A DNA stretch of 63,678 nt, counting the filler, from Kipferlia bialata (lineage: Eukaryota), in the NCBI GenBank assembly GCA_003568945.1. It is 3 parts of 3 records of this genome, joined end to end, with 100 filler letters (N's around TTAATTAATTAA, not from the genome) between each part and the next. Parts side by side here need not be neighbours in the genome. Positions count along the whole stretch, not along the records: positions 24,621 to 49,121 come from BDIP01000225.1; 2 more parts are not named here. One strand, written 5' to 3'. Below are positions 476 through 56,413 of the stretch, piece after piece (position 1 is the first letter of the stretch; each line of letters begins with the position of its first letter). Below the pieces are notes generated by a model that was given only the letters and a program-made list of their open reading frames with translations, searched no databases and was not told the origin of the DNA. A program made the translations under genes and the position numbers.

Positions 476-1733
476 GCTGAGGCAGAACCGAGAGGAGTTG
501 AGGCTGACTGTGGCTGCACTGAAGCTGAGGGACAACCACGTCAAGGACCTGGGACACCATCTAGGTATACTATTACAGTATATATATATATATGTATATA
601 GATATGTATATATATGTGAGAAGGAGATTGAGGGACAACCACGTCAAGGACCTGGGGCATCACTTAGGTACATTATATACGTGCTTACAGTGTACACACA
701 TAATGTGAGGGAGGTAGATTGATGGACAACCACCTCAAGTACCTTGGGTATTATCTAGTCATTTCACTGTATGGGTATGGGTGTTGTGATAATATGGTAT
801 TTGTGTACCTTGTCCCACCCCAGGTGACATTGAGAGGCAGCTCAGGCAGTTCACAGTGCTCTACGACAAGGTATATACAGATGGGAGTATTAGATCTTTT
901 ACTCTTTGCTGTGTTTAGACTCGACATTCCTTCTCTCACTCTCTCACTCTCTCTCTCTCTCTTCTTCACTTACCCGTCAGGTCAAGAGCCAGCGCAACAA
1001 GTTCAACTCGTTGACACAGCAGGCAAAGCAGGTGTGGATACATCCTGTGACGTATTTATGGACATATACATATATATCAATGTTATCATTATGTATATGT
1101 CATATACATTAGACACAGCAGGCAAAGCAGGTATGAATACAAGTTCTATCATTGTATATATTTATTTGTATGTATGCTATGTTGATATGCGTCATATATA
1201 TTAGACACAGCAGGCCAAGCAGGTGGGAATACAACTCATATCGTTAGTTGTTTTTGATATATAGATATATGCTGAATTGAATCTCACCCTAGGCCATCCT
1301 AGAGACAGCTGAGAAGCTTGGCATCCTTGAGAACGAGGTGGCCTTACTGTCAGACGAGGCACTCAAGAAGGGGCACACCCTTAGCTCATTGACACAGGAG
1401 CGAGAGGTGTGTATGTACTGTTACAGTATTATGAATGCGTGTATTTTATCGTATGTGTATAATGAATACAATGTCTCTATATGTATCTCACCCCCCAAGA
1501 CATTGTGACTGAGCAATCAAGTTCTATGAATTACATACCATATACTATATATATACTATCGGTAGTATCTCACCCCAGGGCACTGTGACTGAGCAACCAA
1601 GTACTATGAATACACCACAATATTACATACTATTAAATACTATTGCGTGTAATACTGTTATAGTATCTCACCCCAGGGCATTGTGACTGAGTGCGATGCT
1701 CTGAGGCAGGATGTCGGGAAGAACACCCGGTAC

Positions 1734-1772
<39 letters not shown>

Positions 1773-4700
1773 CATAGACATACATGCAGTACACACGGTA
1801 CGTATGTATTATATTATATATTATATATTATATATATACTAATATATATATAAGTAATGAGAGATATGTATGTACAGCTGAGACAGGATGTCGGGAAGAA
1901 CACACGGTACGTATATATATATAAGTAATGAGAGATATGTATGTACAGCTGAGGCAGGATGTCGGGAAGAACACTCGGTACGGATACCCATAGACATACA
2001 TACAGCATGTATATATATACATTGATATATATGTATATACATCGATATATATGTATGTGCAGGATGTTGGGAAGAACACCCGGTACGTGTACCCATAGAC
2101 ATACATGCAGCATGTATATATATACATCGATAGATATATATACATCGATAGATATGTATGTGCAGGATGTCGGGAAGAACACTCGGTATGGACGCTAATA
2201 TACCTGTATCCCGCACTCTCAGTGTGCTGGAATAGAATGTCTCTCAGTACTTTTACATACATGTGAGAGTGAGTTACGGTTCTCTCTTGTAATCCTCACC
2301 CCCAGTGTGCTTGGTGAGAGTCACGAGCAGCTCAGGGCATGCATATCAGAGCTCGACAGACTCACAGGTATGTGGATATAGTATGTATATATTATAATGG
2401 TATATTATAGCATATATATGAATATATGGGAGGTGGATCTCAGGGCATGCATATCAGAGCTCGACAGGCTGACAGGTGTGTGGATATATATATAGAGGCT
2501 ATGCTCTGTCAGTCCTAGTTGCCCTTTCGTATCTCTCTCTCTCTCTCCCTCTACACCCTTATCCCAGGTGTCATTTCCTCCCTTGAGGAGGAGATCTCGT
2601 CGCTGAGGTCCCAGTACACAGGCAGCATCGAGGAGAGAAACTTCACAGGTGGGTAGAATTCCAGAATGCTGGCTTGAATAGTACATACTGTCGTATAGTT
2701 ACTGACATTAGGTCAGTGATTTGTAAATGAGTATATATATATTATTGTATATTTATATATAAATAAGTTTATTTATATTATTGTATATTTATTGGTTACT
2801 GACCCCAGGAGTGCAGTTGATCGATAGAAATGACGAGCTGGCAGTCTTGTATGAGCGTTTCAACGTTAGAGAGAAGGTGCTAAGAGAGAGTGACAGGCTA
2901 CTGGCGGACAGAGACCAGGTACGTCTACATGGTATTGGTATGGATTTATATACTGTATGTGTGTGATAGTTATAAGTCGCTATACTTGGTTGAACCTCAG
3001 GGAGCTCTCTCCCTCTCTCTCCCGTCCTCCCTCTATCCCCCCCCCCCTCTCTCACTCCTAGGACCTCCGTGTCCTGTCCATCCAGACCAAGGACCTGGAG
3101 AGGGCCATTGATGTGACTAGGTATATATAGAGTGTGTGTCAGATCACTAATGGATATATAGATGTGTATACTACTGTATATATAGATAGATGGAGAGTGC
3201 AGACCAGGGACCTGGAGAGGGCCATCGATGTTACTAGGTACAGCGGATATGTAATGAGAATGGTAGAGCAATCATTATAGGGGTCAATTTGTCAGTGTTC
3301 TTAACCCGTAGGAGGCCAGCCTCAAGGCAGACATAATTGTACTCTTCCATTTATAGTGTATACACTCTAATAGAGTGTATATATATACTAACAACCCAGG
3401 GAACAGGCTGCCGAGGCCTCCCATATATGAATATGTATACGTGTACCCTTTCGCTTATAAAGTGTATATACCATTAGTATGTATTCCTTACCCCTCAGGA
3501 GACAGGCTGCCGAGGCCTCGACCCTCAAGGCAGAGCACCAGGGACTGCTGGACGAGCTGGTGCAGGCCAAGGTATATATATATATAATATTACCCCTCTT
3601 TGAATAGAATATTCGGTAGTAGTCTCTGCATATTTCGTCAGTCTCTTGCATGCGAAGGTATAGGTTGAATACCCAAGAATACATACATACAACCCCCTCA
3701 TCCCCAGGAGGAGACCGAGAGGCTTGCCCACCGTGCCAGAGACACGGGCACAGAGAACAGGATGCTGCAGCTACCAGGTATGGGTATATATGCTATGTAG
3801 TTATGTCAGCATATCTATGCAGTATCTCTGTGTCCTATGACTCACCCCCCAGGCGAGCAGCCCGATCTGACCAAACTGGTGGAGAAGGCACAGGTATTTA
3901 ACATAAATATATGCATATTCAGTAGTAGTGGTATATATGTGTGTATGGGTATATAATCACTCACCCCCAGGACCTAGAGCAGAGGATCACAGACAAGAAG
4001 GAGGCATTCCTCGAGAGACAGGTATCTAACTGTGTATATATAGTTANNNNNNNNNNNNNNNNNNNNNNNNNNNNNNNNNNNNNNNNNNNNNNNNNNNNNN
4101 NNNNNNNNNNNNNNNNNNNNNNNNNNNNNNNNNNNNNNNNNNNNNNNATACACATGTATGGGTATCACGGACAAGAAGGAGGCATTCCTCGAGAGACAGG
4201 TACGATATGGGTATATATAGAGATGTATAGTTATATATATGGGAATATTGATAGATACTATATTATATATGTATTCGTATGTGTGTGTATCACGGACAAG
4301 AAGGAGGCATTCCTGGAGAGACAGGTATGTATATATGATCATATATACAGATGTATAGTTATATATATGGGAATATTGATAGATACTATTTTATATATGT
4401 ATATACACGTGTATGGGTATCACGGACAAGAAGGAGGCATTCCTAGAGAGACAGGTACTATTATATATACATATATACTTATACTAGCATATATATAGAT
4501 ATATATATATATGTATATGAGTGTATTATATATGTATATATACATATACCTGAATCACGGACAAGAAGGAGGCAATCCTGGAGAGACGGGTACGATACTA
4601 TATGGGTGTGTTTTACACATGAATATAGAATCATAGATACATATGTTTGTATCATATAGAAAGACAGGTAATGTTATTGTATCTTGTTGTTATGTATATG

Positions 4701-21290: not shown

Positions 21291-23858
21291 AATATATATA
21301 CTCATAGTACCTGAGGTGATGAGTACCCTGCCTCCTGGTCACTGTCCTAATCACTCTCTCTCTCTCTATATATATTTATATATATTAATATACATACTCA
21401 TAGTACCTGAGGTGATGAGTACCCTGCCTCCTGGTCACTGTCCCCATCGCTATCTCTCTCTCTGCATATATATATATTAATACACATACTCATATTACCT
21501 GAGGGCTAGAGTACCCTGCCTCCTGGTCACTGTCCCCATCACACACACTCTCTCTCTCTATATATATACACACACACACATATATATGTATATACATGTA
21601 TATACCTGTGGCGATGAGTACGCTGCCTCCTGGTCACTGTCCCCATCACTCTCATGCTCATCATCAGTGTCGGGGGGACCACCTAGATGTTAGGGTATAC
21701 ACAAATGTATCTACGCACACATGCAGACTTACATATTCCACTCAAGTGTTATGGTTGAAGAAACATATATATAAGGAAACAATAACAGGTCTATGTCACA
21801 CTGGTTACATACTAAATGTACTCCTAACCTGCCACCACCGTGAGTGCCTGCAGCACCCTGTCTCTCTCTGCCCTGTCGGCAAAGGCTAGGAGGTACCTGG
21901 GATAAGACAAACCCGAATTGAATAAAAAGTAAAGTACATATGTATCAATACAAATCTAACCCCAAAGACCCAAACACATACTATCTCTGTACATAACTCC
22001 AAATAACGCAAATCATACCTCTTAGCGTTGAACACCCTGAGTGTTCCAAACTCTATGCCATAGGGCTGGGACCCATCGATGTCGGTGGCCTGGGGGTGAG
22101 GGGCAGAATACTATGATTGTGATTGACAGCTGTATGTTTACTATCATGCATCGATATACAATATTGAGTATAAGTATATATATTAGACAGAGAGATAGAG
22201 AATTTATATATCCGAACCTTTGGGTCATCGATCTCTGATACCAGGACCATGTAGAGCTCTGAGGCACTGCCGCCCTGGGGGTTAGTGGTAATACACGAAT
22301 AGTATATATATACAAATAGACAATATATCTACAAATATAGTACTATAACAGTATAACTGTAGAGCTCAGAGGCACTGCCGCCCTGAGGGGTCAGTGGCAA
22401 CACGAAAGCCATAAGATAGTGTGTATCAGGATCACTGACTCAGATACCACAAGTAAGTCCATATATACATATGTGTGCACTGCACCATACCTTGTATGCC
22501 GTCTCACTCTTGAACCACCTGAGACAGTCAGACGACAGCACAAAGAACCTGGGGGTGAGGGGAGGGGGGGAGAGAGATATATGATGAGAGACAGAGAGAG
22601 AGAGAGAGAGAGGGAGAGAGTGAGGACATATATCCACACACCTGCTCTGGAAGTGCTTCACCATCTTCCCCCCCATCTTGCCCGCACTGAAGGAGGTGAT
22701 GACAGACACGCCGTCGGTGCTCTGTCTACAGGGTGAGGGGGAAACATACATACACACTACCATGTAATATATATACGTATACTCATAATGAAAGAGGAGA
22801 GACATATTCTAATAGTAAGGTGGATACATATGCATGTTAGGCCCCCCAATGTCACCCACCTCAGCTCATTCTTGGGCACTGCCTTGGGGATGAAGGCAGG
22901 GACCTGGGGGTAGGGTATAATGGATGGATACACTTATATATATACATATATATATGAGAGGGTTGGGGATGAAGGCAGGGACCTGGGGTGGGAAATGGAA
23001 GATGTAGAGAGTAATATATATTGTAAGAGAGAAACCTAGGATACACATACACCACCCCATACCTCTGTGCGCGATGGGGAAGGTGTGAGGTTGGTTGAGT
23101 GGGGGAAACGGACGGAGGACTCTTGTACAACGCCCTGGGGGTGAGATATGGAATCATAATGTATATATGAATATACATATAGTCTACAGCTAGTATCAGT
23201 GCCTTAGCCAGTGACTCGTCCATCCTGGCCAGCACCGAGGACAGGGACACGTATATACACTTCACATAATGGTATATATATACATACTTTTGCTAGGCTC
23301 TCGTCCAGCCTGGCCAGCACAGTTATTGAGGACAGGGACAAGTATATATACAAGAGGACACAATGTATAATACACTTATATACCTTAGCCAGTGACTCGT
23401 CTAGTCTGGCCAGCACTGTGACAGACGACAGGGACATATACATAGAGTATACTATAGTATCAATATCTATATATTCTATACCTTAGCGAGACTCTCGTCT
23501 AGTCTGGCCAGCACTGTGACAGATGATAGGGACAGGTGCTTCTTGAAGGCAGGGCCTGGGTAAGGAGAAAGAGTGGGAGAGGGAGAGGGAGAGACAGAAC
23601 GCTGTGTCACATTGTGTACATACCCTGTGTATGTCCATCTCATACTGGTTAGACCACTCATATATACACACATATACACACACACACATATATATGTGTG
23701 TGTATGTCCATTCACACACTGTATCCTGCCATACCCTGTATGTGAATATCCATCTCATACTGGTTGGTCACCAGCTGACACTTGACACTGGGCTTCAGCT
23801 GGGAGGGACGCTTGACTACAATGGGGACCCTGGGGGTGAGAGTCTCTCTCTCTCAACA

Positions 23859-24030: not shown

Positions 24031-24063
<33 letters not shown>

Positions 24064-29770: not shown

Positions 29771-30703
29771 GTTGGGGAGGGGGGGGGGGGACTGGGACAA
29801 TAGTGTGAAGGGAGGAGTGTGTAGTGTTCGTATAGGTGTCCATGTCAATCCACCTCCGGTACTGTGTAGGGAAGTGTATCCCCCTCGATGTCGTCTGGGA
29901 TGCACCGAAGGGCAGACTGCACACCACTCCTCAGTGTGTCTCTCATCCTCAGCAACGCATTAATCAAACTCTGGTCAAACTGATATGTAGCCATGTTTAG
30001 CCTTGATAAGGTGTGAGTCTGTCTCTGTTATCTGAAGGGAGAGATGGCAGCTGAACCTAATGATACCCTCAGAATTGGTTTCTTGATCGGATGGTAATTG
30101 ATGGGTCCATATGTATGATACCATGAGTCCTACCGAAAGCTACGGTTAACCTAACAGATGGGAGTGGTACACATCAGTGGACACAGCAAGATATCCCCAC
30201 GGCTACTTTACTCTCACCAGAAGTGCACTGATACTGAAGCATCAGCTATATAGTACGGTACCTATTTATGGTACAAATACTGGGTATATCAGCCTACTCA
30301 CCTACTGAGTCGCCAGATGCTTGTGGCTTCTCTTCTCCTATACTGAAGAGCGACGATTGATAGCTCGACAGAGTCTCTGAGAGAGTACAGCGAAAAACAC
30401 ACTGAAGGAATCTCTTTTCAGTGTCGATTTCAATGTCGATTTCAGAACCGTTTAAATACGTTCATGGATTCGAATCCAAGGTATTCGAATTGCCCAATCT
30501 CACAGAGCCAGCTCCGATAGGGAAGCATAAGATACCAAGGAAGGAAGTCGTTTATTGTTTGGTGTAGATCATACTAGTAGGAACAGTAAGAGAGACGAAA
30601 AGACAGCTGAGCTACTAGTTTGGACTGATCCTTAAAATGATGATCAAGTGTGTGGCCGAAGGATGATCGGCATGGGAGATGGACGACACTCCTCTCTTCG
30701 ATT

Positions 30704-31156
30704 ATGGGGGACCAGATCCGCAGGGCCACAGTCGATGACCTCCCTGCCTTGCAGGCCCTGGCCCGGCGTGTGATAGACGGGTGTTACCGGGGCTTCCTAG
30801 GGGACGAGGGGGTGGACTGGTACATTGGGAGTGGGGAGTCTGACAGGGAGGTTGCCAAGCACATCGACAGCACCGACGTCCTGGTGCGTGAGGGGACTGT
30901 TCTGGGACTGGTAGTGTGTCTGGATGACCTAGTCCACTTGCTGATGGTGGATGTGCATGCCCAGAGGTCAGGGGCCGGCACCCTCCTGCTCACCCATGCC
31001 ACCGACAAGATGTTCCAGGCAGGCAAGGGTGTCATACACGTGGAGACGTTCAAAGGCAATGATAGGGCAATTGCGTTCTATACAAAGAACAACTGGACAC
31101 AGGTTCAGAGGACAGGAGGGGAGGAAGAGAGGGTGTTCTTCGAAAAGAGGAGATAG
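30704..31156 (+). CDS. GNAT-family N-acetyltransferase, intronless
   Basis: IRRATVDDLPAL N-terminal motif, acetyl-CoA motif A LMVDVHAQRSGAGTLLL, motif B NDRAIAFYTKNNW; 150 aa from ATG 30704. Confidence 0.9.
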   Translation: MGDQIRRATVDDLPALQALARRVIDGCYRGFLGDEGVDWYIGSGESDREVAKHIDSTDVLVREGTVLGLVVCLDDLVHLLMVDVHAQRSGAGTLLLTHATDKMFQAGKGVIHVETFKGNDRAIAFYTKNNWTQVQRTGGEEERVFFEKRR

Positions 31157-32133
31157 ACGTGCTTCACTCTATATTCCTCATTATTCTGGTAGATAAGACC
31201 CACTACCCAGTAGAAGAGAAGATATGCGGTACTAGTGCTACCCTCTTGGCGTCTGACGGGACTGCGTTGGAGGGAGACTATGTCGGTCAGAGTGAGTGGT
31301 ATAATGCTGGTGTATTGTACTATTTGTAGAGAGAGAGAGAGGTGGGGGGGGCACCCAGTGGTAGATTGTTTTAACTGTTTCTGCAAGGCCTCTCTGTGTG
31401 TCTTTAAGGCCAGAGACCTGGAGAGGTACTCTATATTATTAGGCACAACTCAGGGATAAATTTAGCATATGGTGGTCCATGTTTCTCTCCTTCTCCCCCC
31501 CCCCCCTACTCCTGCCCCCCCCCACATCCGAGGTATAGAGATTCTCTCTACTTATCCTCTACCTATTCTCTCCACTATCTTACTATCCCCTTGACACATA
31601 TATACCTTCGTTCCTTTCCTCTCTGTATGTCATCCTTACAGGCAGTGCTGGCAAGTTGGCAGAGGCACTCGACATATAGCAGGTGTGCAGATGGGTGGGA
31701 GTCTTCCCTCCAAATCTAGCCCAAGTCTCATTTCTCTCTCTTCACTATTGTTGTGCCCTACATATATATATAAGCCCTTGACTCCCAGGACTGACCATGT
31801 GACCAGTCAGTGTCCGGAAGAGAAGGAGGTGAGCGAAGCACCCTCAAGATAGAGGCATTACTGAATAGAGTCTATTCAATAGACCCTTTGTTCTGTGAAG
31901 CGTGTAGGCGTTGGTGTGTCCAAAAATTGCATTCAGTGTGACCCATTCTTTAGTGTTCTTGCATATTAGATGCAAGTTGGGAACGGTGTGTAGATTTTTG
32001 GTCTCATTTAGTGTCAAGCAGACGCAACTGGTCTCTTTCCAGCATTTGTGAGTGTGTGTAAACCAGATGCTGTCATGTGTAATCAAGTCTCCCCTACACG
32101 CTTTTCAAATTTCTATATACTATCTCATAGCAG

Positions 32134-35020
32134 GTTCTCCCAATGGCGGACAGCCTCTGGTGATGCCAGTACCACAGTACACTCCCAGCCAGGTATAGTG
32201 GTACATGTACTACATGGAGAATGAGGCTTCAGACAATTGTGTAAATTTGTCGCTCCAAAAACTGGTCCAGTCAATTCGTTCTCTTCACGACCCTCTCTTG
32301 TAGATCTATCTACCCATATCCCTCACTGTGCAGGATGGCCCTGTTGGTGGAGACATGACCGATGAGCAGAAGAAGGAGAGGGTGGGTGGACGCATACTAA
32401 TGTATTTCTAGCATGTCTATGTGACTCCATCACTGTGGAGAGCCCTGTTTTCCTATCCTCTATCCTAACCGCCAGATCCTCCTGATGCAGCAGTTGCAGT
32501 GGCAGCACATGGAGATGGAGACTCTGGCCGCTAGGCAGGTACGTATCATATTTCTCTTCATTACCCCTCCTCTCTCTACACAGTCATTAGTGATTCACTA
32601 ATACCCCCACCCCCCTGCTCTCTCATCACAGCAGCCCCCCCAGGCACAGCCCCAGATGCAGCCGCAGATGCAGCCCCAGATGCAGCCTCAGATGCAGCCC
32701 CAGATGCAGCCCCAGATGAGGCCCCAGCAGACCACCACTGTAGTGAGCCAGGTACATTGATAGACACGTTGTATATACTCTCTCTCTCTCTCGCACCCAG
32801 TTTGGTATTTCTCCCATTGTCTCACACCTGTCTGTCCCTCTCACCCTCAGAATGGCACCAGGGTGGTCCCCAAGAGCCTGTGCACAGCGTATGCCTTTTG
32901 GGTACGAGCCTATCCCAATCCTCTTGTCCCTGTTGTCTTAGTCACCACAATCGGCGGCCTCCCCCCCCCCCCACCTCCGCCTGTCAGTCACCCACTCACC
33001 CCCCAGTTCATAGGCTGCCACCACTACTACCTAGGCAACTGCTGCGTGGGCTGGCTCTACAACATGACATTTGGCGGCTGTACGTGAGTCTCTCTCTCTC
33101 TCTCTCTCTCTCTGTCCCACCCCCAGGCGGTCTCTGGGCCATGATTGACCTCTGTCTCATGTCCAGCCATGTCAATGCCGCAAACTTGAGGAGGGGGTGC
33201 TACACACCAGGTGTGGATCTATCCAAATATCATAATATGTATAATGTACAACATACAATGTATACTATACACACTGGATACTAAATGTATCTATGTATGT
33301 ATCATTAGGTTGCTGCACACCAGGTGTGATATCTACACATCCATTGTATACCAGTCCTGTACATACTGCCACCCACCCCAGGCCACACCACTGTCAACAT
33401 CAGTCAGGGGGGCATGGTGGGTGCTAGCCCACTCATCCAGGTACACCCACCTAAAGTCATATATACGTCTATATCTATATCTATATGTATGTAGCGGACA
33501 CCTCACCCTCTCTCATATTCTCTTCATGTATTGGGATTCGACGTCTGATGTATTGCTTACATACCCCTCACCTTAGCCTAACCAGATGAACCCAGCCACA
33601 CCGGCAGTAGCAGCGAAGCCAGGCCCAGGTATATTACTGTATGTCTATCTATATATGGATATAGAGAACATGCCTGGAGTGCACCCTAACTCTTCATCCA
33701 GCTTCCCCCCCTGTATATCCGTACTTATATGTCCTGTCTGACCCCAGCCTCCAAGACCCCTGCTGTTGCTCTGTCCCTCATAGGTCTTGTCCTCTGCGGT
33801 CTTAACATACTGGTGCACACTCTGGAGACAGAACACGAATACGGTGAGATTATACTTTCACACAGAAGATACAACATGAATGCTAGTGCTCTAGACTTGC
33901 ATCTGGGTCCTCTCTGACCCTCAGTGGGGAACCATGTTGTGACGATGCCCTGGTTCTTCCACATAGCCTTGAACCTGGCGGAGCTTGTCGAGGAGATGTT
34001 CGATCCAGATTTCCTCATTAGGTGTGGGCTTTTCTCTTCACATATGTGCGAATGGTGTTGTATGTAGATTGGCTCTATCAGGTTTGTGTGCCCCATGTTC
34101 TGATATTGTAGATACACGCCCATCCTCTAGCATATCTTTAGCATGTTGGCATTTAGCCCTAGAACTCCCAGTTATGTCTCACCCTCAGCATCTACTACAT
34201 ATACTGTATATGTAACATATACATGTACTATATATACATGTACTATGTACCGTCTTACCCCCAGCATCTACTGGCTCATCCTCACTGTCCTCTTTGCCGT
34301 GCCCCCCACTGTCCTGAGCCTGATAGGAATGAGAAAGGTAGGCAGAACCTACCACGTTTGTGTCATGCATTCTCACAAATCGGTATCCTATTGCGTGGTG
34401 TCCCGGTAGTTCCCGGTATCTGTGTATACTCTCCTTACATATACTGCACATACTCTGTATCTACAGCGGTCGTGTATTGTCCTAGAACTGACTATAGGCC
34501 CCCTACATTACCTCTGATCCTGCCAAGCACCACTGCCGTAAGAGCCTAGCCACTCTGTGCTCTGTGATGAATTTTGCGGGTGCTGGCGCCCAGGTATAGG
34601 TGTCGGTGTGGGGCATATGGTGGCATACTATCTCTGCACTCTATCTACATGCCTGACCCCAGCTTGCTTTCGCCATCTATGAGCAGTTCAAGTACGCTGA
34701 CTACCGTGGCGGGCTAATATCCGTATATGACTACATGGTACGTAAGCAGTCAGAGTCAAGTGTGAAGCATCCTGTGATATATCAGGAACTCTAGTAACAT
34801 GTGTAAGATTGATATATATATGATTGTCTTTCTGTGAATACAATGCTTAGGAATTGGGAACGCTGTTGAGATCTTGTGCCTAGACTAGGTATCCTAGTGC
34901 ATGTTCCCACTGCTCTAACCCTAGGATGCCCTCCAGGGAGTGCTGTTCATCTCCACCTATGGCCGGTATGCATGTGCCGGGGCAGCACTGTGTCTGGCAC
35001 TGGCGGCTGGAACAGCATAG
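32134..35020 (+). CDS. TM2-domain protein with Gln/Pro repeats and further TM helices
   Basis: KSLCTAYAFW|FIGCHHYYLGNCCVGWLYNMTFGG|CGLWAMIDLCLMSSHVNAAN fits the TM2 consensus (AY.LW...G.HHFYLG...G.LY..T.G..G.G..ID). Downstream exons are hydrophobic; TAG at 35018-35020. Start is uncertain. Confidence 0.65.
32647..32720 (+). repeat. Coding 12-bp tandem repeat (CAGCCCCAGATG) encoding (QPQM)x6
   Basis: Read directly within an exon of the TM2 gene. Confidence 0.85.
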
Positions 35021-35982: not shown

Positions 35983-36988
35983 CTGGGAATAAGGGGGGAG
36001 AGAGGGGGGGGGGGGGGGGGGAGAGGGGGGGAGAGAGGGGANNNNNNNNNNNNNNNNNNNNNNNNNNNNNNNNNNNNNNNNNNNNNNNNNNNNNNNNNNN
36101 NNNNNNNNNNNNNNNNNNNNNNNNNNNNNNNNNNNNNNNNNNNNNNNNNNNNNNNNNNNNNNNNNNNNNNNNNNNNNNNNNNNNNNNNNNNNNNNNNNNN
36201 NNNNNNNNNNNNNNNNNNNNNNNNNNNNNNNNNNNNNNNNNNNNNNNNNNNNNNNNNNNNNNNNNNNNNNNNNNNNNNNNNNNNNNNNNNNNNNNNNNNN
36301 NNNNNNNNNNNNNNNNNNNNNNNNNNNNNNNNNNNNNNNNNNNNNNNNNNNNNNNNNNNNNNNNNNNNNNNNNNNNNNNNNNNNNNNNNNNNNNNNNNNN
36401 NNNNNNNNNNNNNNNNNNNNNNNNNNNNNNNNNNNNNNNNNNNNNNNNNNNNNNNNNNNNNNNNNNNNNNNNNNNNNNNNNNNNNNNNNNNNNNNNNNNN
36501 NNNNNNNNNNNNNNNNNNNNNNNNNNNNNNNNNNNNNNNNNNNNNNNNNNNNNNNNNNNNNNNNNNNNNNNNNNNNNNNNNNNNNNNNNNNNNNNNNNNN
36601 NNNNNNNNNNNNNNNNNNNNNNNNNNNNNNNNNNNNNNNNNNNNNNNNNNNNNNNNNNNNNNNNNNNNNNNNNNNNNNNNNNNNNNNNNNNNNNNNNNNN
36701 NNNNNNNNNNNNNNNNNNNNNNNNNNNNNNNNNNNNNNNNNNNNNNNNNNNNNNNNNNNNNNNNNNNNNNNNNNNNNNNNNNNNNNNNNNNNNNNNNNNN
36801 NNNNNNNNNNNNNGTTTCCTGTTTAAAACACCCCCCCCCCCCCCCCCCCCCCTATCCATCCTCCCACTCTATATACTAGAGTTGATACCTCTATGGTATG
36901 GTACTACCTTCCTATCAGAGCTTTTGGCCTTCGAGGGGCATTGATGTGTCCGCTATGACAGATCCCCCCCCCCATGTCTTACCTATAG

Positions 36989-37399
36989 GATAAGAGACCG
37001 AGGCATTGATGTGTCCCCCATGATGGGTGTGGTGTCAGTGCAGGAGACATCGGCAGGGGTGGTGGTACGTGTATATATATTTATATATATGGAGTGAAGG
37101 TGAGAGCGAGAGAGATTCAGCGGGTGGTTAGTGTATGCGATGTCTGGCTGTCGCCCCCTCTTCCCCCCTCTCCCGCACTTTCCCCCTCACCCCAGTCTCT
37201 CTTTAGAGGTGGTGCTGTCCGTACAGCCCAGGCACAGACAGAGACCCTGTGCGACATTGGGGCAAAGTACGAATATGTACTCAATATGGAGACTATATAG
37301 AGTAATCAATATAACTATATATGCATGTGGGGACCCTCTGCAATAGTCTCTCTCTCTGATATTAGCCAGACTGCCATCGCTGTCCCCTCCCACCAGTAG

Positions 37400-37439
<40 letters not shown>

Positions 37440-39983
37440 CTTTACCCTTAGGCAGACTGCCTTCACAGTCCCCTCCCACCAGTGCAGCCTGGTCACCACC
37501 CTAGGCCCCCTAGTCACAGAGTTAGGTGTGTAAATATACTAATATACGGAGTATATCTCGCTATATTCCTGGATATGGTTTATGATACTGTCTTTTAGTC
37601 ACTGGGTACTCATAACAGGCGTTGAGGCCGCTGCCTACCTCACTGAGGATGGGCTGAACTAAATACTCATATTTATATACATTTACCATATGCCTCCCTC
37701 TCTCTACATATTCAATTGTGCATAGTCTGACACCAGGTGTTGAGGCCGCTGCCTACCTCACTGAGGGTGGGCTGTGCTACATACTCATGGGGACATGTGC
37801 ACTCAGGGCGCCAGGTACTGTATATATACTATATATAGTCAATATATATGTTGTACTATATTGTATATATACTGTGTACTTGTACTATCGAGTCAATACA
37901 TTATATGGTCTGTGCTACATACTCATGGGGACATGTGCACTCAGGGTGCCAGGTACTGATGATGCTATGGATATTTACATATATACATAATGATGTATCT
38001 AGTCCTCATCTTCTGACCCTAGGGCGAGTCTCTTAGTAGTGGGACTGTATGTGTGCCATAGTTTCTGTATAAAAATATGTAGGACAATTGCACACTTTTT
38101 ACATACCACCACTATATATGTGTGATAGTTGTATAGATGTACACTCTCACCCTAGGGAAGTCCCTAGTGGTTGATGTGATGTGGGGTGAGTGCAGGATGG
38201 CAGAGGGAGAGGGGGAGGGAGAGAGCGTTGTCTACACCCTGCACACCCTGGCCAAGGGGGGTGTCATGTACACACACTGCATACAGGTGTGTATGTGTAG
38301 TATATAGTATATAATATATGCATAGAGACACACTTCATACATGTAATGAATTGTATATATATGTATATATTTATATACATATATATATACATGTACCCTG
38401 CACACCTTGGCCAAGGGTGGTGTCATGCACACACACTGTATACAGGTAATAATTACTATATATACATATACACACACTCTATATAACTAATATGATATAT
38501 ATATTAAAATGTATATCTACACCCTGGCCAATGGGTGTGTACTCGTGTGTATATATACGAGTGTGTACTAGTCCTTACCTCCAGTTTTTTTTCTCCCTAG
38601 GCCAGATGCCACCTCTGACTACACATGTACATATATCTATATCTATATATACTGTATCTCTGTATTTGCATTCATCCTCTTACCCCAGGCTCTACCAAGG
38701 GAAGACGACACCTCTGACTACACCTGGGCATTCACCTCAAGTGTCCCCTCCACACACACCCCTGGGTCAGTAGCAGTATGAGTGTATACACCATATACTC
38801 TACACTCTTTTCTATATACTCTTCCATATACTAGATATACTGATACCCCCAGGTCCCTATCCCTTGTCAAGTATATATATACAATATACCCTACTATACA
38901 TATTTATATATGTGTATACTGATACCCCCAGGTCCCTCTCCCTTGTCAAGTGTGTCAGGACAGGGCGCGTCTTCCCATACATACACACCCACAGCACCGA
39001 GAGCGACCCCCTTGCCCCACCCCCTCTGCACACACGCCCTGTACTTGGAGGCCCCTCTCCCATAGTCTCTCTCCCTGACCCCTCTCCCTCTCCCACTGAT
39101 GCCAACCCCCTCTCCGTAGGGTACACTGTAGCCAGTGGCGGGTGTGCAGTGCTGCTGTCATTTGGCACTACCCCTGTCAGGCAGGTGGAGCTTAGACTGG
39201 AGGGTGGCAGAAGGGTTGTGTCCAGTGCCAGCTGGGTCAGTGGGAGTGCACCTCCACTGTCATTGGGTGATAGAGACAGTGTACTGAGGGGGACACTCTC
39301 CCTGCCCTTCCCCTGCCCAAGATACCCAGTCATATCGTCAATGAGGATCATGGATAGGTATATATACTCTATTAGGATAGGTATATATATATATTAAACC
39401 CATCCCCACACATTCTATCTATATACAATAACCTGTGCCAGTCATATCGTCAATGAGGCTCCTGGATAGGTACATGTACTCTCTCTCTCTCTCTACATAT
39501 ACACCTTTGCGTCTGTATGTTCTTGTACTCACTATCCTCAATGAGGCTGTGCATATGGGTAGGTACGTGTATTAACCCCATCCCCCCAACTAAAGATTAG
39601 TCTAATAACATATCCCAATGATATCCTCATTAACGCTCTTGGAGGTACTGTCTCTCCATATATACATATACATCAGACTCGTGGAGAGGTACTCCTCTAC
39701 ACCCTCACCCTCATTCTCTAGTTTCATTGGTTCTACTCTTTCTATCCCGCCTCCCGCTCTCTCATATCCAGGACTTGGTTGGTGATAGCCCTCCACTCTG
39801 GCGCTGTGTGTGTTGTGGGCCTGCAATCCCTCCTCTCACCTGATACACCCATACCATACCTCCACATGTCACTAGGTGTGTGTCAACCCACCTCCCCACT
39901 CCCATTCTATTCATATTCTTCTTCTATTCCATTTTACCTTCGGCGCAGGGGGCATCCTAGCTGTCATGCTACATACGCTGGGA

Positions 39984-40020
<37 letters not shown>

Positions 40021-41252
40021 GTATATTTATATATTCGTCCTCTTATCCTTCAGGTACAGGTGGCTCCCTAGCCGCTATGCAGAGTCCCCTCATATCTGCT
40101 GTGCCCTGCCAGTCTGCTGTGCCAGCCATAGTGTGTGTGCAGGTAGTATATACTTATATATATATATATATATACTTGTTTATATATATGTGTGTGTGTG
40201 TGTGTGATGTACTATTGTATATATATACTATTGTGCCCTGCCAGTCTACTGTCCCAGCCATAGTGTGTGTGCAGGTAGTCTCTCTGTCTCTCTCTCCTAC
40301 TCTGGCCTATTAATAGCTTCCAGTGTCCAAACATATCAGTTATGTCACTAGTCTATAGAATTAGCACATTCTTTTGAGTGCATACTCTTTCCTCTATTCT
40401 AATGCCACAGGTCCTAGCCAACAAGGCCAACACCTACCGCCGGTGCCCTGCCGTTGTGTCCCAGCCCATACCCGTCCCAGTCAGTCAGATACTCTCTGCA
40501 GACACACCCTCCCATGTCACTGTACATGCACTGTCTACACCATGCCCTGGTAGTACCTATCTGGCACCGGCACACTCGGTGTCAGTGGCAAAGCCCATAC
40601 TGGAGGCTGCTTTAGGTGTGTATGTGCTGTGTCTCCTCTTTCCTGTCTATACTCCCTTGTAAATAGTCTCTATTGGTAACCCCTCACCCCAGCTGTGGCA
40701 GAGGGTGTAGCAGCCAGTGCCAGGGAGTGTCTCTCTGCCATAGCTACCACCCCTGAGGGAGAGAGAGAGGCAGTGGTAGCCAGGGCTGTCACCTACATAC
40801 CCTTCTTCTGCAGACTGCACTACCTCTCTCTCTCTCTCCCAGCCGAGGAGAGAGAGGCTGAGGGGTCTGTCTATGCCACATACAAGGCACTCACCGCCTC
40901 TCTGTACAAGTGTCTGATGGATTGCCTCTCCACCCACCCCAACCCCTCTGTCTCTGGCCCCTTAACAGCACCCCCCGCTGCTCTCACCCCCACACCCTGG
41001 GGCGCACCCTCCATGTGCTGTGTATCGCACACCCCCTTCTGCGGTGTAGGTAGTCTCTGCAGAACATGCCAGGCAGAGGTGGCACCTGGGGTGGCACGGG
41101 CTGTACTCAGCTGTGCGTCACTTAAGGGTGTAGTAGAGGGAGAGGGAGTGGAGGCTGCAGTCTCTCTCTCTCTCTGCAGGATGGGTGTGCTCCTGTGCCC
41201 GGTCTGTGGGTGTATGTGTCCACCAGCAGATGCATTGTACCTGCTGGAATAG
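36989..41252 (+). CDS. Hypothetical multi-exon protein with C-terminal Cys cluster (possible zf-TFIIIC/GTF3C4-like finger)
   Basis: About 12 GT-AG exons. Last exon has CCVSHTPF..CRTC...CPVCGCMC and TAG at 41250-41252. Family assignment is tentative. Confidence 0.5.
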
Positions 41253-41692
41253 ATAGACTGTCAGTAGGGTATATATACGGTCCCGCAGATGCACTGTACC
41301 TGTTGGAATTGATGGATAGCAATTTGTCCTTATTGATAGGAGTGTACACAGGCGTATTTGTATGGTCTGGAGCCAGATCACATCGTATCTGTTGGTGTAT
41401 AGGGTAATGCTAAGTGGTACTATATCTCGATAATACCAGTAGTGTTTTGAGTGTATCCCGGTTGGGTGGAAGTCAGACACCATATATCTACACTAATACT
41501 CCTCTCTAAAGAAACACACTCTCCATAACAGACTAAATAGGATTTATGACCAATTGAAAGGGTGCCAAATGGAATAGTTACATGATAGGTGTAAATATGT
41601 GAAGTGGAATCGGTTTGTTAAGTTATATTCATATTGGTGAAAGAGAGTGCAGGAGGCGTCTGACGTCTAGCGTCTAGCGTCTGGCGTATCAC

Positions 41693-42072
41693 TCAACGTT
41701 CTTCTTGCTCTTCTGTCCCTTGTCAGACACACTGGGGGCCTTGTCGCTGGTGAAGACTGGACGTGAGTGATATATACCACAATACCTAGATCTAGGTATG
41801 ATATATGATATGATCTATATATCTATCCAAACGGAGCCCACTACACTTTCCACGTCTGAATTTGCATATATATGTACATACGATTTATAAATAGCAGAAG
41901 AGCGATACAAAACACACAATAGTATTATGCACCCACATTCATATATATACATATGTACACACATACATGGTACCTGTCAGCTCCAGTGCCTGGCACTGCC
42001 TGATGAAGATACTACTAATACATCAATACATAGAGACAAGTAATGTCTATATACACATAGTATTAATAATCA

Positions 42073-42103
<31 letters not shown>

Positions 42104-42424
42104 CACTGTAAAGTATCTGTGTATACCTGTCAGCTCCAGTGCCTGGCACTGCCTGATGAAGGCGCCGATGTTGCTAGGGTTAGGCAGAGGGAGAGAAAGA
42201 TAGGAAGAGAGAGAGAGAGACTGTCTGATAAAGGCATCGATGTTGGTATGGTAAGAGAGAGAGGGGGGGATGGGGATAGGCAGACGCACAAACATATATA
42301 TCTAAAGTGTAGAATGTATAACAATGTATATTATAACATATCCACGTACCCCACGTTGAACCCTGCGAAGTTACCCTCGGCTGTCCAGAGGATGACCTTG
42401 CCAATACCCTCATTGCCTAAAGGG

Positions 42425-42464
<40 letters not shown>

Positions 42465-43540
42465 TAACAATGCCCTCATTGCCAAGGGTATATTAGTATT
42501 ATAGTATATATATATATCCAATAGTATATATATAGAGAGAGTATATATAGCGAGACACCGTGGAATTACCCTCATTGCGTAAGGGCCCTAAATATATGTA
42601 TGTATTTATACATATGTATATGTATACATACTAATATGTATATATAGAGAGAGAGAGGGGGGGGGAGTGAGAGAGACATTCTATACCTGCAGCTGAGCGA
42701 CGACCTGCTGCCCACCAGACAGTGAAGTCAACGGACATGCCCCAGGTCTAATGGGTCAGAGGGAGGGAGAGAGAGAGAGGGAGAGCGGTAGACAGACAGA
42801 GAGAGAGAGAGGTCTGTGAAGGGACATGCCCCAAGTCTAGTGGGTCAGGCAGAGAGAGAGAGAGAGAGAGAGGTCTATATAGTCAACGGACATGCCCCAA
42901 GTCTAATGGGAAAGAGAGAGACAGACAGAGAGAGGGTGTGAGAGAGAGAGAGTAAGCAAACCATATGGTGTCAGCAGTACGTGTATGCTAGCACAAGGTT
43001 ACCAGGGGTGGAAGAGGGAGAGAGACATACAATATGAGACATGCATTGGATAGGAGAAATAAGGGGGGGGGGGAGAGCGACGGAGAGAGAACTAGGAGCA
43101 TGCCTTGGACAGGAGGAATGGGAGTGCAGTGGCGTCCTGGACCCTGCGGATCTAGGGTTAGAGGGGGGAAGACAGAGAGAGAACGACTGGGGGAGGGGAG
43201 AGAGAGAGGGAGAGAGAGACTGGTAGGCATGGCAGATGCGTTCAAGGCCAACATACCTCATTGAAGTTGAGAGTCTTCTTGCCAATTGGGAAGTAGTAGT
43301 GGTTGATCACAATCTTGTTGCGGTGCAGGGTCACGTACTTGTCCTAGAGTCAGTAGCTGTATAGATACACCCCAGCGCACCAGAAACACTAGACACATAG
43401 TATACGATAGACTCGGTTCACACACACTTCTTGAAACGAACCCCGCAAATCAGGACATCCCCATTGTACATAACACTACTACAGTTACAGTATACCTTGT
43501 ACACCACGTCTGGGTTCTCTGGTAGCTCTGAGTATGCCAT
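41693..43540 (-). CDS. Small conserved hypothetical protein (PH-like fold suspected)
   Basis: MAYSELPENPDVVYK|DKYVTLHRNKIVINHYYFPIGKKTLNFNE|IRRVQDATALPFLLSK|TWGMSVDFTVWWAAGRRSAA|GNEGIGKVILWTAEGNFAGFNV|...NIGAFIRQCQALELT|VFTSDKAPSVSDKGQKSKKNVE*. Confidence 0.65.
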
Positions 43541-43901
43541 AGTAGTGCCTCGAGTGCTTTGATAAACAGATCAGTGTGGAATGGTCATGACTGATTTTTT
43601 GCTTTGAAGAACCCTTTTCTATCAAGATGTGTTCCAAATCTGAGCCAGTTTTCTCTTCATTCCAGACACAGCCCTACGATGGGATATAGTCTGGTTCCGG
43701 GTCCCAAATGGGGCCTACCGGCTCTGTTAGCGTTGCTTCTTCTATTAGGGCTGGTGTCTGAGGTGGGTTGAGTGTGGGGGTCGAATTAGCCTCGGTCAAT
43801 CTCATTGGTCAATTACCCGTTACCATTGAATACGACACACACATGTACCACACCAACACCTATCTTAGTAATTGCATGGTGGTATCAGTACAATTGGAGA
43901 T

Positions 43902-46900
43902 ATGAGGACTGTGTGCACGAGTATATCTATGTATGTGTGTTTGTGAATGAAGGAGCCGGGATATGATCTCATAGTATACCACGTATGGGGTTATATAGTC
44001 GTATATATATAGTTCATTCCATTATAATTACCCAGTGGGTCTCTTCCTCGCCATACCTCAAGTGTTTACACTGTGTTTCCTTCTAGATATGATTGATCTG
44101 ACGCAGGTTACTTGTCAGTCCGAGTCTCACCTCTTGAACCCTTTTGTCACTACTTTTTGTACCTGAACCCTTATTCTGTTTTTGTATCATTGCTCTTTTC
44201 ATTTTTCTCTCACTCTCAGGCACTTGCCACCAGCGTCCCCTTCGGAGAGTCCACCTACTACTCTGCCTATAGCGGGGCTGGTACAGGGTACGCTGCGTCC
44301 ATTGCCACCACAAGCAACGGCTTTGATGTACTTGCTGTGGGGGGTCCCTCTGACGACACCAACGATGAGGATGCCGGGGCTGTGTACTACTATCTCAAGG
44401 TACCTATGTATGCATACATATAGTTATATTGTATACTGCATGTATTCTCTCTCACCCTCAAGGACGCCCAGGGTGCCTGGTATGACGAGCCCTCTGCAAT
44501 GTCAGCCTGTCCCAGGTATGTGATATAGCCTAGAGTGTATAGTATATAGGATATAGGTACCAGTGATGATATTGCTACACTAGTACACCCATCTGACCCT
44601 CAGGTATGCTGACGGACAGCGCTTCTTCGGTGTGTCTGTCGCTGCTGATGGGGAGTGGATAGCCGTGGGGTCCCAGGGTACCTCTGTCGCCAACCGCTAT
44701 GGAGCTGTGGACATATACTATCATGAGGTTAGTATGGACACACTACTATATAGAGTGGATGGGGGGGAGCTGTCACACTGTTGTACTCTGAGTATCCATC
44801 ACTGACCCCCAGGCTAACTCCGGCTCTGACTTCTACATCTGGAAGCAGACCCTGACCGCCGAGAACGACGTCACCGACGCCACGGAGTCCAACTTTGGAG
44901 TGCATGTCGAGATGGACTCTGGACGCATCGCTGTGTCCAGCTACCTAGAGACCACCGACGGCACTGTACAGTTCGGCTCAGTTTACGTCTACTCCTACTC
45001 TGGTGATCCTACACAAGTGGGGGGGTGGGACCTGGAGGATACACTCTGGGATGATGTAACCTTGTTTAACAGGGCTGCCTTCTTTGACAAGTTCCACTTT
45101 GGATACTCCATATGCCTCAGTGCGGACACGCTGTATGTCACGACTGGCTACACTGGGGTATGTTGAGAACATACTCAAATATATACTGCATCTCTGCATA
45201 TGTCCACATACTCACCAATAATACTATGTATCAATGTTTACTTACAGAGTCTGCTATATTGTAGGAATATGTCCATCTACTCACCCCAGGGATGGGCTGA
45301 CAACCTCACAGTCTATGACCGTGAGTCCAATGGGACATGGACTAGATACGCAGGGTATCAGATAGTAGCCAAGGTGGGTGTCACATTATACCTATGCATG
45401 GATATGTTGATTTGTAACTCTGCCCTATTGTGTTAATGTGTATCAAGTTGTGGCCAAGGTGGGTGTCACATTACATATATGCATGGATATGTTGATTAAA
45501 TAGTTGGAGAGTGTCAGTATATCATATGCGTAGGTATATATATAGTACCTCTGCCCTATTATGCTGCTTATCAGGTCGTGGCCAAGGTGGGTGTCATACT
45601 TCATATGTATATATAGTGTATATATAGTCATTATGCAGTTCAAGAGTAACAGTAAGGTATATGTGTGGGTGTGGGTATATACTTCTATACAGTGAACTAT
45701 CTTTGTGCCTCTCACCCCAGACTGTGGCCACCTCCAGCTTCTCTCGATTCAACCTCGTGGTCCGTGGCTCTGGAGACACTGTATCCCTATACTCAGAGGA
45801 TGATACCGACAATGTGTACACACTAGACATATCATCGACCTCGGATCTGGACCACCTTGACACTCTCTCTCTGGCCGACACCACCGAGGGTGGCATTGCC
45901 AGCCTGGCCTACTCCTCCGACACAATAGTGATCGGCACCGCCAACAACTACGCGATGATCTACTCCGTCTCCACCGCTGGCGAGCTCTCTCCAACCTCCA
46001 CCATCAGCGGAGGTAACGGGTTTGGCGGCTGTGTGGCTACCATCGACGGGGACAGGGCTGTGGTAGGAGGTGCGCCTGTGACAGGGGCTAGCGGGGTGTA
46101 CATGCTCAATGCCGGCGAGAGTGATTCCTCTCTCTCTGCCGTGCCTGCAGGTGTCCTCACCTCTGCCGGCGAGTCCTCCCCCACCCCTGTCACTGTGGGT
46201 GTGGTTGATGTTGGGGACAGCCCAGTGGCAGGTGCACTAGTGGATATCTCCTTCGATGGTGCCCTCTACACCTTCTCCGAGAGTGGCGGATCCTACGCCA
46301 ACACGGTTCCCCTCTCCGCTAGGGGCGGAGACTCCCTCGATCTGGTGCTATACCTGTGCCCAGAGGCCGTGACTGGTTCCTATCCCATCACACACACTCT
46401 CTGTCCTGTCCTAGAGACACAGACTGTATTTGTCACATACACTGCCACTTCAGCAGTGACTGTACCCGCTATGGTGTCTGACACTGTGGTGGACGTCACT
46501 GTATATGACCAGAACGGCATCAAGATCACTGACCCGGCTGCTACTGTCACACTCACTCCCTCTGGTGGTAGCGCAGCTGCCTGTACCCTAGACACCTACT
46601 ATGGTACATACGGGTGCCGGACGGGCTCAAACACAGAGGGATACATCACCGCCTCTCTCTCTGTGACACCTGCCTCTGCTGGTACAGTCACTGTCCCCAC
46701 CTCTCTCTCTGTCTACTCAGAAGGCACTCCCTTCTCTAGGGCAGTTGATCTGGATGTAGGAGGGACAATGCCCTACTTCAATACCGCAGTGGGCGCCACT
46801 GGAGAGGGTGATGGTTACTACGAGTTTGTCTCTATTGATGGCGACTGGATGGTGGTAGGGCAGCCCGATGAGAATATCGGTGGAGTGGAGAAGGCGGGTC

Positions 46901-49121
46901 GAGTGTTGGTGTACAGGAGAGATGGATACACCTGGGCGTACCACCAGACACTCACCATACCTACGGTACGTGCATATAGGGGGACCATGCAACACATATA
47001 TATGTATATATATACACATACTGGTTAATTGTATATATCCAACTCACACTAAGTTGTGGCTACCATGTAGTGCATACATATGTATATACACACTGGTTGA
47101 CTCACTCTAGGCAGTTGTGGCTGAGTCACAGGTCTTTGGCCAGAGTGTGTCTGTATCAGGTGACTGGATAGCGGTAGCAGCCCCTGGGGCCAGCATTACA
47201 GATCCTGACGACTCTGTGGTATGATAGGAGTGTATATATGCATATGTATATGTATATGTATGAAGACTAATACATTTATATCTAAATGGTAATGTGGGCC
47301 AGTGTGACAGACCCAGCAGACTCAGAGGTAAGTTTAGAGTATACATATACCAAGATGGATTAGTATAGTACTCTGCTATGCTTGTATATTCACTGGTGTT
47401 GAATACACCGAGTCTACAGTGTTTGAGTTATATACTACTATCGATGTCTCACACTCAGGACTACAAGGGCTGGATCTACCTCTACAAGCTGGACGAGTCA
47501 AGTGATACCTGGGTCCTCACAGACACTGTACACAGCTATGCTACTTACGCCTCGGCATGGTTTGGAGACAAGAACATGGTTCTGGTGGGTGACACCCTCG
47601 TCTGTGGGGCCTCGTCCTATCTCAAGGTTGGCGGAAAGGTCCGAGGGGCTGTCGTTACCTACACGATGTCAGGTGACGTATGGACGCTTTCTCAGACGCT
47701 GACTACTGAGATCGACATCGACACTTGGTACTCGGATGGGCTGGGTGGCTTTATTGGCTTTGATGGTACGTGATTAGGTGTTCCATAGTCTACACTCTCA
47801 TTTACTTCACTATATACTATTCTTCTTTCCTTTCCTAGCAGTTCCGTCTCTCACATTTCAGGCACCACGATTGTGTCTCTGACCGCCTGTGGTTTCTTCT
47901 CTTGTCCGTACTACAACGATGCGACTAAGCCCTACATACAGATATGGGAGAGAAACGAGAGTGGTACCTTTGTCCTCCAGGACCCCATCGTGAGTTCCGG
48001 GTATGTTGAGTCTCGGACTCCTAGAGTGAGTGGCGACTGGATGGCTGTGGGACAGTTCAAGGCAGAGGGCTATGTGGGGGTTGTCAAGATGTGGCATAAG
48101 GAGGGTGGTGAGTGGGTGGCCCAGCCAGACGTCACAGGAGTAGATACCAAGTACTTCGGCAAGGCCCTTGAGATTGATGGGGACTATATGGTGGTAGGTG
48201 CACCCAACCACGGAGGCGACGACCTGTATGGACGTGTGTCTGTCTACCATCTCTTCCGCGGTGCCTCTGAGTGGGTTGAGACACAGGCTGTGGTTGGCAC
48301 TCAGTACCAGCAGCAGATTGGATACAGTGTGGCTCTCGACGCCTCTACAGGCATGCTAGTATCAGGTGGGTGCTGATATCCAGAATCCTCGGTATACCTA
48401 CTAATGTATCTGCTTCTCTATTGTTAGTGTGCAATAGTATACACTCACAATCAGGTAACCAGAACGAGTATCAGGCCGATTACGTCGGAGGCTTCCCTTC
48501 TGGTGCCAGCCCCCACGTACTTACCATGAGCACAGGCCCTGTGGCTGATATCACACCGGTGCCAGTGGTGGAGCTCGACACCACAGGTATTCTACACGGT
48601 GAACGCATCCACCTACACTCTCCATCTTATCCCCAGAGGTTCTTGTCAAGTTTGAGGGCATCGACGGTACCTTATTCGACGACTCTAGCTCTGTCTCGTT
48701 CTTCTACAGCGATGATGAGACTGAGACCCCCACCGCTATGGCCTACTCTGCCGGGGACGAGGGCTTTACATTGACTGCCATCCCTGCTGATACCTTCAGC
48801 CTTGGGGACAGTCTCATGATACAGGCCTATGTACCCACCCCACTCCCAGCCGACACCGAGCACTTCACCTTCGATACATCTACTGGTGAGGCCACCGTAG
48901 AGACTGAGCCCGTGCCCTGCGGTGTGTCTGCCGCCCCTCTCTACAAGGACGCGATGGATCTCTGCCTCTCCCTGCTAGACGAGGAGGACGTGGCCCAGAG
49001 TGGGTTGCTGCTTGAGACCTCTGTCAAGTGGAAGCTGAAGGGTGCTGACGACTCCACCTACCACATTGCCACGTGGAGTGCCGCGGAGGGTGCCTATACT
49101 GCTGAGTCCCCAGTCACAGAC
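43902..49121 (+). CDS. Large secreted/surface FG-GAP (integrin-alpha-type beta-propeller) repeat protein, 3' truncated
   Basis: Hydrophobic N-terminus. Repeats include FFGVSVAADGEWIAVGS, NFGVHVEMDSGRIAVSS..GSVYVY, VSIDGDWMVVGQP..AGRVLVY, FGQSVSVSGDWIAVAAP, FGKALEIDGDYMVVGAP..GRVSVY. A Thr/Val-rich beta-sandwich-like spacer lies between two repeat blocks. Confidence 0.85.
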
Positions 49122-49221
49122 NNNNNNNNNNNNNNNNNNNNNNNNNNNNNNNNNNNNNNNNNNNNTTAATTAATTAANNNNNNNNNNNNNNNNNNNNNNN
49201 NNNNNNNNNNNNNNNNNNNNN
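49122..49221. other. Artificial scaffold spacer (N-TTAATTAATTAA-N)
   Basis: TTAATTAATTAA at 49166-49177 inside Ns. Confidence 0.95.
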
Positions 49222-49270
49222 TTTTTGGGGTGATATCCCCGCTCCCCCCCCCCCCCCTGTCCCACCCCAG

Positions 49271-52266: not shown

Positions 52267-52546
52267 TGTTAGAGAGAGTGTGTGAGAGAGAGAGATAGGC
52301 TGCCTTGTGTAACGCTGCCACTGATACTGGCCAGTGTGGGAGTGCGGTCTCGGTTGAATTTGTTGGGTTTTGTTAGATCTTGACCATCTTGTCGTGAGTT
52401 CGTTTGAATAGTGTTGCACCAATAGACTCTATTGAATAGAGTGATTAGTTTTCTCCGTGACCCTTTTGCTAAGTGACAAAGAGAAGATACTGCCTCACTC
52501 TCTTCTCTACCCGCTCTTTGCCTAGCCTGCATATATTCATGCATCA

Positions 52547-56376: not shown

Positions 56377-56413
<37 letters not shown>

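Follow-up and report, generated by a model that had tools for sequence, protein, structure and literature searches.

Does a copy of coding sequence that lies beyond a stop codon record an event in the DNA, or is it an alternative end of the gene that is reached by splicing? This question is raised by the 3' end of a 12-exon gene of Kipferlia bialata, where the last codons of the gene recur a short distance after the stop. Copies of this kind, which repeat the end of an exon outside the coding sequence, are referred to below as echoes. The window, i.e. the whole stretch of DNA analysed, comprises 63,678 nt of intron-dense eukaryotic DNA in three separate pieces, with N runs around a 12-nt all-frame stop linker at the two junctions (24521-24620 and 49122-49221); other N gaps are found at 4047-4147, 36042-36813 and 56978-57544.

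The stop codon and the sequence copied after it

Gene models for the window were obtained with a small self-trained predictor and then curated by hand. Those of the host gene (P0002) and of a PH-domain gene (P0003) match public proteins, and all others are our own predictions. The translation of curated exons 2-12 of the host gene matches residues 4-632 of P0002 exactly and ends in the stop, and a candidate for the first exon lies at 36893. A 2015-nt contig of run X2, a run that is RNA by a tool's guess only, skips the GT..AG intron before 40693 and is unbroken over 40691-41263 with no other letters. The translation and the contig together define TAG at 41250-41252 as the stop of the main transcript, and an earlier note on this DNA, which had read the gene as ending there with PADALYLLE, is borne out both by the match to P0002 and by the contig, which runs straight through. 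The X2 contigs were compared with 40300-41900 only. Rare forms are lost from such contigs, which do not reveal where a transcript ends, so that the end of this one at 41263 is uninformative on the 3' end of the transcript, and the blank that they leave at 41272-41487 carries no evidential weight.

A search with the last exon recovered one protein cluster among 6443 candidates, which is from Kipferlia bialata and has two members. The second record, P0001, comes from another contig, is 13 N-terminal residues shorter than P0002, is identical to it over 619 aa and likewise ends in PADALYLLE; the two would represent either a recent duplicate or assembly redundancy. Given this identity over 619 aa, there is no sign of diverged alleles in the assembly. 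Pfam and PDB searches with the P0002 protein were both empty. Its language-model features resemble those of Med16 / TFIIIC-delta WD40 proteins with a C-terminal CxxC (Atlas 0.92), a predicted likeness that may be taken as a lead only.

Both 30-nt strings of the repeated pair, 41223-41252 and 41282-41311, are present as the earlier note had them, and are 26/30 identical at a lag of 59 nt. The three synonymous changes that it counted are real (CCA/CCC, TTG/CTG and CTG/TTG, i.e. one Pro third position and two Leu first positions), but the differences total four, the fourth being A versus T at 41251, by which TAG becomes TTG. At a lag of 59 nt, the echo does not continue the reading frame of the gene. 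In the 59-nt tandem register, identity is 8/15 over 41208-41222, 24/27 over 41223-41249, 6/9 over 41250-41258 and 3/8 over 41259-41266. The third of these values indicates that the resemblance extends slightly beyond the stop; the copied unit thus spans both sides of it (6/9 over the stop and the next six bases), a feature that is weak here, and weak similarity also reaches back to 41267. When the last 60 coding nt were compared without gaps with the following 300 nt, the best score was 23; 200 shuffled versions of these 300 nt scored 8.0 on average and 14 at most. The two copies share no long exact word, the longest match in the core being 9 nt. Neither terminal repeats nor an ORF, as in a transposon footprint, were found by eye in the 29-nt spacer. 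The convergent neighbour gene, the stop of which ends at 41689, has no echo after its stop; phase continuity at 43104-43103 (-) suggests a GC-AG intron in this gene.

Table 1. Coordinates of the host gene, the stop-codon echo and the echo arrays in the window.
Feature	Position	Strand	Evidence
12-exon gene, 632-aa protein, public record P0002 (K. bialata hypothetical protein)	36893..41252	+	translation match
Last intron of P0002 gene, 77 nt, GT..AG, spliced	40616..40692	+	joint in X2 contig
Terminal coding exon, stop TAG 41250-41252	40693..41252	+	sequence, X2 contig, P0002 match
Source copy: last nine codons, stop and 6 more bases	41223..41258	+	sequence, register identity
Spacer, 3' untranslated/flank, with short TA run	41253..41281	+	sequence; last X2 contig base 41263
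Echo	41282..41317	+	24/27 over nine codons, TAG to TTG, 6/9 over next nine bases
Further echoes in introns of P0002 gene: 8 in main set, 2 in extra set	36937..40279	+	echo scan
Convergent neighbour gene, terminal exon and 3' region, stop ends at 41689	41531..41756	-	X2 contig 41531-41759
Exon 23555-23482 of PH-domain gene (P0003) and three tail echoes at 23436, 23343 and 23235	23203..23555	-	echo scan
Exon and four tail echoes; Leu third position C, A, G	3971..4587	+	echo scan
Exon and four tail echoes; Thr third position C, A, T; every difference synonymous	1677..2185	+	echo scan

Echoes at the exon boundaries of the window

The main scan of the window, at a fixed threshold, identified 57 exon-echo pairs, of which four were dropped before the counts (three at an exon that abuts an N gap and has an uncertain frame, and one mis-registered). 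Echoes were found at 37 of 328 boundaries, compared with 0-1 in controls (four pairings with introns of other genes), and 30 of the 148 introns, or about one in five, carry one; the P0002 gene includes eight echo families. Downstream copies end at the exon end in 30/34 cases and keep GT in 30/34, and upstream copies start at the exon start in 18/19 and keep AG in 15/19. Retention of the splice dinucleotides implies that the template was unspliced sequence. The lags of the nearest copies cluster (median 107.5 nt, range 59-203). Among the stops and starts of the window, several of which come from predicted models, an echo is present at 1/17 and 0/8, respectively, which is close to expectation from the 11% rate over all boundaries. 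The stop echo properly belongs to this class, but it is one case, and taken alone it is an ordinary, single tolerated duplication. A link between echoes and TA-rich introns is borderline, with rho 0.49 (P=0.051, 16 genes) between echo density and the TATA content of echo-free introns.

Echoes are clustered in 1-6500, 19400-24500 and 36900-43000 and nearly absent from 25000-35000 and 49222-63678, the third piece (49222-63678) having none at the main threshold. In-frame deletions occur in the echoes at 23203-23260 (-) (6 nt), 4800-4850 (9 nt), 5090-5140 (9 nt) and 3310-3335 (+) (3 nt), and those at 5355 and 20526-20570 look frameshifted. The clearest non-exonic tandem copy in the scan is a perfect 30-nt direct repeat with a lag of 26 at 17480-17535, outside the gene models. 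Two other predicted proteins of the window are of note. That at 6700-11289 (-), which we take to be SMC-like, has a P-loop, a long coiled coil and a hydrophobic segment near 7624-7410, and its model may fuse two genes; that at 44089-49120 (+) is large and secreted-looking, and its hits to FG-GAP and invasin domains are weak, falling short of the Pfam cut-offs.

Whether splicing takes part in the stop echo had been answered in the negative by the earlier note, on the ground that no splice site is involved. This holds only in part, as an in-frame AG in the echo (41287-41288) pairs with GT 41212, though both are weak: the AG, at -0.1 bits, exceeds 2% of 145 real acceptors, and the GT, at 4.0 bits, exceeds 6% of real donors. 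The route between them is 77 nt long and in frame, and the echo frame is open for 41 codons. The source copy of the stop echo is unspliced in the X2 contig, which reads through the stop and, like all such contigs, would drop rare forms. In the wider set, an acceptor near the start of the copy that reaches the 1st percentile of real acceptors was found in 0/37 downstream-side copies. Upstream-side copies often keep a good acceptor, and occasional mis-splicing into them is possible on this basis. Stops make up 4/59 of the amino-acid-changing variant codons of echoes, and the single-base changes that alter an amino acid are not more conservative than expected by chance (P=0.10-0.41), so that the class fails to display purifying selection for protein. 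The missing acceptors, the stops and the non-conservative changes together make translation of echoes as a class unlikely, and they are unlikely to be exons. An origin at the DNA level rather than by alternative splicing, as had been proposed, is thus supported, mainly by the other echoes (0/37 acceptors, 4/59 stops, copied intron bases); the stop echo alone proves little in this respect (1/17 stops, 0/8 starts; P=0.07-0.18 for its synonymous bias). The further proposal that echoes form at boundaries finds no such support, the data being compatible alike with biased formation and with biased survival. Since a duplication that straddles a single boundary leaves the protein intact, survival would explain the placement equally well, and it is more likely that copies survive at boundaries than that they form there.

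Synonymous changes and the source of the echoes

The 53 pairs have pS 0.237 and pN 0.058. Synonymous changes account for 77/149 unique differences, a count reached in 0/100,000 simulations and to be compared with 46.9 if the exon is frozen and its copy neutral, and for 47/81 in the true frame versus 11/81 and 13/81 in the wrong frames. When the null allowed synonymous changes to accumulate in the exon as well, P was 0.034, 0.009, 0.040 and 0.52 at four trimming strengths. The pooled synonymous excess over this evolving-exon null is modest, and an additional set of 14 shorter echoes did not reproduce it (amino acid the same in 14 cases and changed in 21). For the stop echo the same null gave P=0.073, or 0.176 with the stop codon counted, neither of which is significant. 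Selection on the echo is thus not needed for most of the synonymous bias, which fits selection on the working copy alone. An attempt to polarise changes by whether the exon agreed with a second echo gave 22 synonymous and 18 other changes; it was discarded, since repeated duplication from an exon that itself evolves yields an identical pattern.

The flanks of the copied units were profiled with the nearest echo per family (17 donor-side and 15 acceptor-side families). On the donor and acceptor sides, respectively, identity is 0.94 and 0.93 at codon positions 1+2, 0.84 and 0.80 at third positions, and 0.92 and 0.87 at intron bases 1-3, but only 0.46 and 0.50 at bases 4-12, versus 0.35 and 0.45 in same-gene controls; it is near the control already at intron base 4. 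A sharp identity tract with diverged flanks, a mark of gene conversion that fast repeat slippage could also produce, is therefore present, and the profile would appear to be that of two functional homologues rather than of a neutral copy. Echoes were detected by exon identity, which makes the profile selection-biased, and TA repeats slip fast, so that conversion may not be required to explain how little of the flanks is shared.

An array can contain as many as five different versions of the exon end, and the most informative array on the splice side is that of P0003. In its echo at 23343, 11/17 codons are changed with one amino-acid change (Val/Ile), as in 0/1137 matched simulations, and among 24 echoes tested against the evolving-exon null this is the only one that rejects it after correction. 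The same array has four incompatible site pairs and fails the four-gamete test; the recombination test is informative in this one of six arrays, the other five being without informative sites. Three-state sites within arrays are synonymous third positions in 5/5 cases. The low flank identity, the echo at 23343 and the five three-state sites do not fit selection on the working copy alone; they point to re-copying that was limited to the exon and drew on functional, possibly allelic, sequence. Searches for a paralogous donor, run with the last exon among proteins of 325-2000 aa and with P0003 among those of 155-494 aa, recovered nothing beyond the query's own cluster, which would argue weakly against a diverged paralogue as donor. 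A metagenome scan for a second isolate gave 239 pattern matches, none of them confirmed.

Two further pairs are recorded here as observations. In 45355-45400 versus 45440-45490 (+), the intron flank is nearly identical and six codons differ at four bases, a pattern opposite to that of the others, as if the exon part alone had been replaced. The pair 47187-47218 and 47296-47327 (+) contains a strongly diverged, homologue-like echo with 7/10 codons changed, 4 of them synonymously.

The segment 41282-41317 is likely the second, untranslated half of a short tandem duplication across the stop codon, and the class to which it belongs is probably refreshed at times from the working exon (probability about 0.6). 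Duplications of ~60-200 nt would originate in the repair of breaks or forks, and TA-rich DNA may promote them. Those within an exon would be purged, whereas those over one boundary (donor, acceptor or stop) would keep the gene intact and leave a spare fragment outside the coding sequence. The working copy would then be limited to synonymous changes while the spare decays freely, and the synonymous bias would for the most part follow from this. Functional sequence, partly from diverged alleles, would subsequently be re-copied onto the spare by gene conversion or unequal exchange restricted to that portion of the exon which can be aligned, the TA-rich flanks meanwhile drifting apart. This re-copying is the weakest step, to which we give slightly better than even odds, and the same exchange may have acted on the stop echo itself.

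According to passages of PMC8516963, metamonads are without NHEJ, and fornicates lost Rad51A and kept two Dmc1 paralogues; the abstract of PMC6719624 states that mismatched heteroduplex is stabilised by Dmc1. To link these repair-gene losses or Dmc1 to the echoes is speculation. A more far-reaching proposal is that introns and 3' flanks archive foreign alleles, exon ends being repeatedly copied from strongly diverged homologous chromosomes by mismatch-tolerant, Dmc1-based repair and undergoing concerted evolution with their untranslated spares. We regard this as possible but doubtful; if true, one genome of a free-living fornicate would bear the record of sex that has stayed hidden and of an extreme diversity of alleles.

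Duplication might also have sufficed without any later exchange, with a spare that decays neutrally, an exon that gains synonymous changes, and TA/GT slippage that randomises the flanks. The pooled excess over the evolving-exon null, which is small and not replicated, the random-looking amino-acid changes, stops included, and the stop echo (P=0.07-0.18) are all as expected from such a history. It is nevertheless unlikely in view of the 0/1137 simulations for echo 23343, the synonymous three-state sites, the incompatible sites in one array and the fall of identity to near the control from intron base 4. Directed copying at coding/non-coding boundaries, whether by pre-mRNA-templated repair or from breaks at splice- or termination-coupled R-loops, comes closest to the earlier note and would account for the tight placement of echoes, the clustering of their nearest-copy lags and the scarcity of similar-sized complex repeats outside genes (window-wide scan, by eye). 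We consider it very unlikely, as selection alone predicts the placement, stops and starts have no special enrichment, and an unsystematic look noticed no echo that joins two exons.

A functional alternative last exon, spliced from GT 41212 to AG 41288 and adding a 32-residue tail, is highly improbable even though the route is open and in frame: its acceptor is weaker than 98% of real ones, and one X2 contig, of a kind that drops rare forms, goes straight through the stop. The same applies to intronic echoes as exon ends kept by protein selection, which the good acceptors of upstream-side echoes and a few almost purely synonymous echoes would favour, but which the downstream-side echoes without an acceptor, the stops and the non-conservative changes contradict. 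An assembly artefact in which two haplotypes or strains were placed in tandem could be suspected from the second record of the same protein on another contig, and from the fact that no DNA contig was seen to span the stop echo. Such an error is extremely unlikely, given that the 59-nt lag fits inside one short read, that the copies lack a long exact word, that arrays have up to five different versions, and that 0.96 of the words sampled from 36900-46000 are present in independent Logan contigs of run X1, possibly the source sample itself.

The pattern to which the stop echo belongs bears on wider questions. It is denser than any we know of from a genome. It touches the question of why K. bialata has so many introns, 124,912 according to the genome paper, when its parasitic relatives have a handful (PMC5874029). 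It likewise touches fornicate break repair without NHEJ and Rad51A (as outlined in PMC8516963), and whether fornicates recombine. Exon-echo pairs offer a within-genome test of conversion and allelic diversity for which public data suffice. In practice, gene finders are misled by echoes, many of which were called as exons by the self-trained predictor.

Comparison with known systems

Gao and Lynch, in PNAS in 2009, reportedly described internal (intragenic) tandem duplication, in which short direct duplications cover exon and intron. The echoes resemble these in being direct-orientation copies beside the same gene beyond chance (score 23 versus 14; 37/328 versus 0-1). They differ in affecting about 1 in 5 introns, in forming arrays of up to five and in the stop-codon case, and also in that the copies lie outside the coding sequence, with conservation by codon position and of splice dinucleotides and with flanks that are near random.

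Interlocus gene conversion drives concerted evolution of tandem duplicates and pseudogenes and gives tract-like identity, mosaics and a constrained-looking non-functional copy. The first and the last are seen here, and a possible mosaic in one of six arrays, but in units of 20-50 nt at exon ends, the usual cases being whole genes. Tandem exon duplication with mutually exclusive splicing, e.g. in Dscam, also yields neighbouring exon-like copies with mostly synonymous differences, whereas the echoes are partial, have only one splice site and in some cases contain stop codons. In the replacement of gene 3' ends by mobile ORFs in fungal mitochondria, e.g. Allomyces atp6, a tandem pair of the gene's last codons likewise differs mainly by synonymous changes; unlike there, neither a mobile ORF nor a self-splicing intron is present in the 29-nt spacer.

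PMC3443670 describes both internal duplication within genes and a route of intron gain in which an exon segment that contains AGGT is duplicated in tandem in the genome. As there, a tandem copy leaves exon-like sequence in non-coding DNA and the protein unchanged; however, the duplication there creates an intron, and here it extends an existing intron or 3' flank. No AGGT is present in 41223-41258, and this segment is unspliced in the X2 contig. The main text of the K. bialata genome paper (PMC5874029) contains no word starting with 'duplicat', and the relevant portion of PMC6679479 concerns spliceosome proteins only. No published description of exon-end echoes was found in the titles and abstract starts searched, most subscription papers lying outside that search. 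By the features tested, the echoes are members of internal duplication and are neither AGGT intron gain nor alternative exons, and they share part of the character of interlocus conversion. They constitute an apparently undescribed, dense form of internal duplication, and they hint at exchange with alleles that have diverged.
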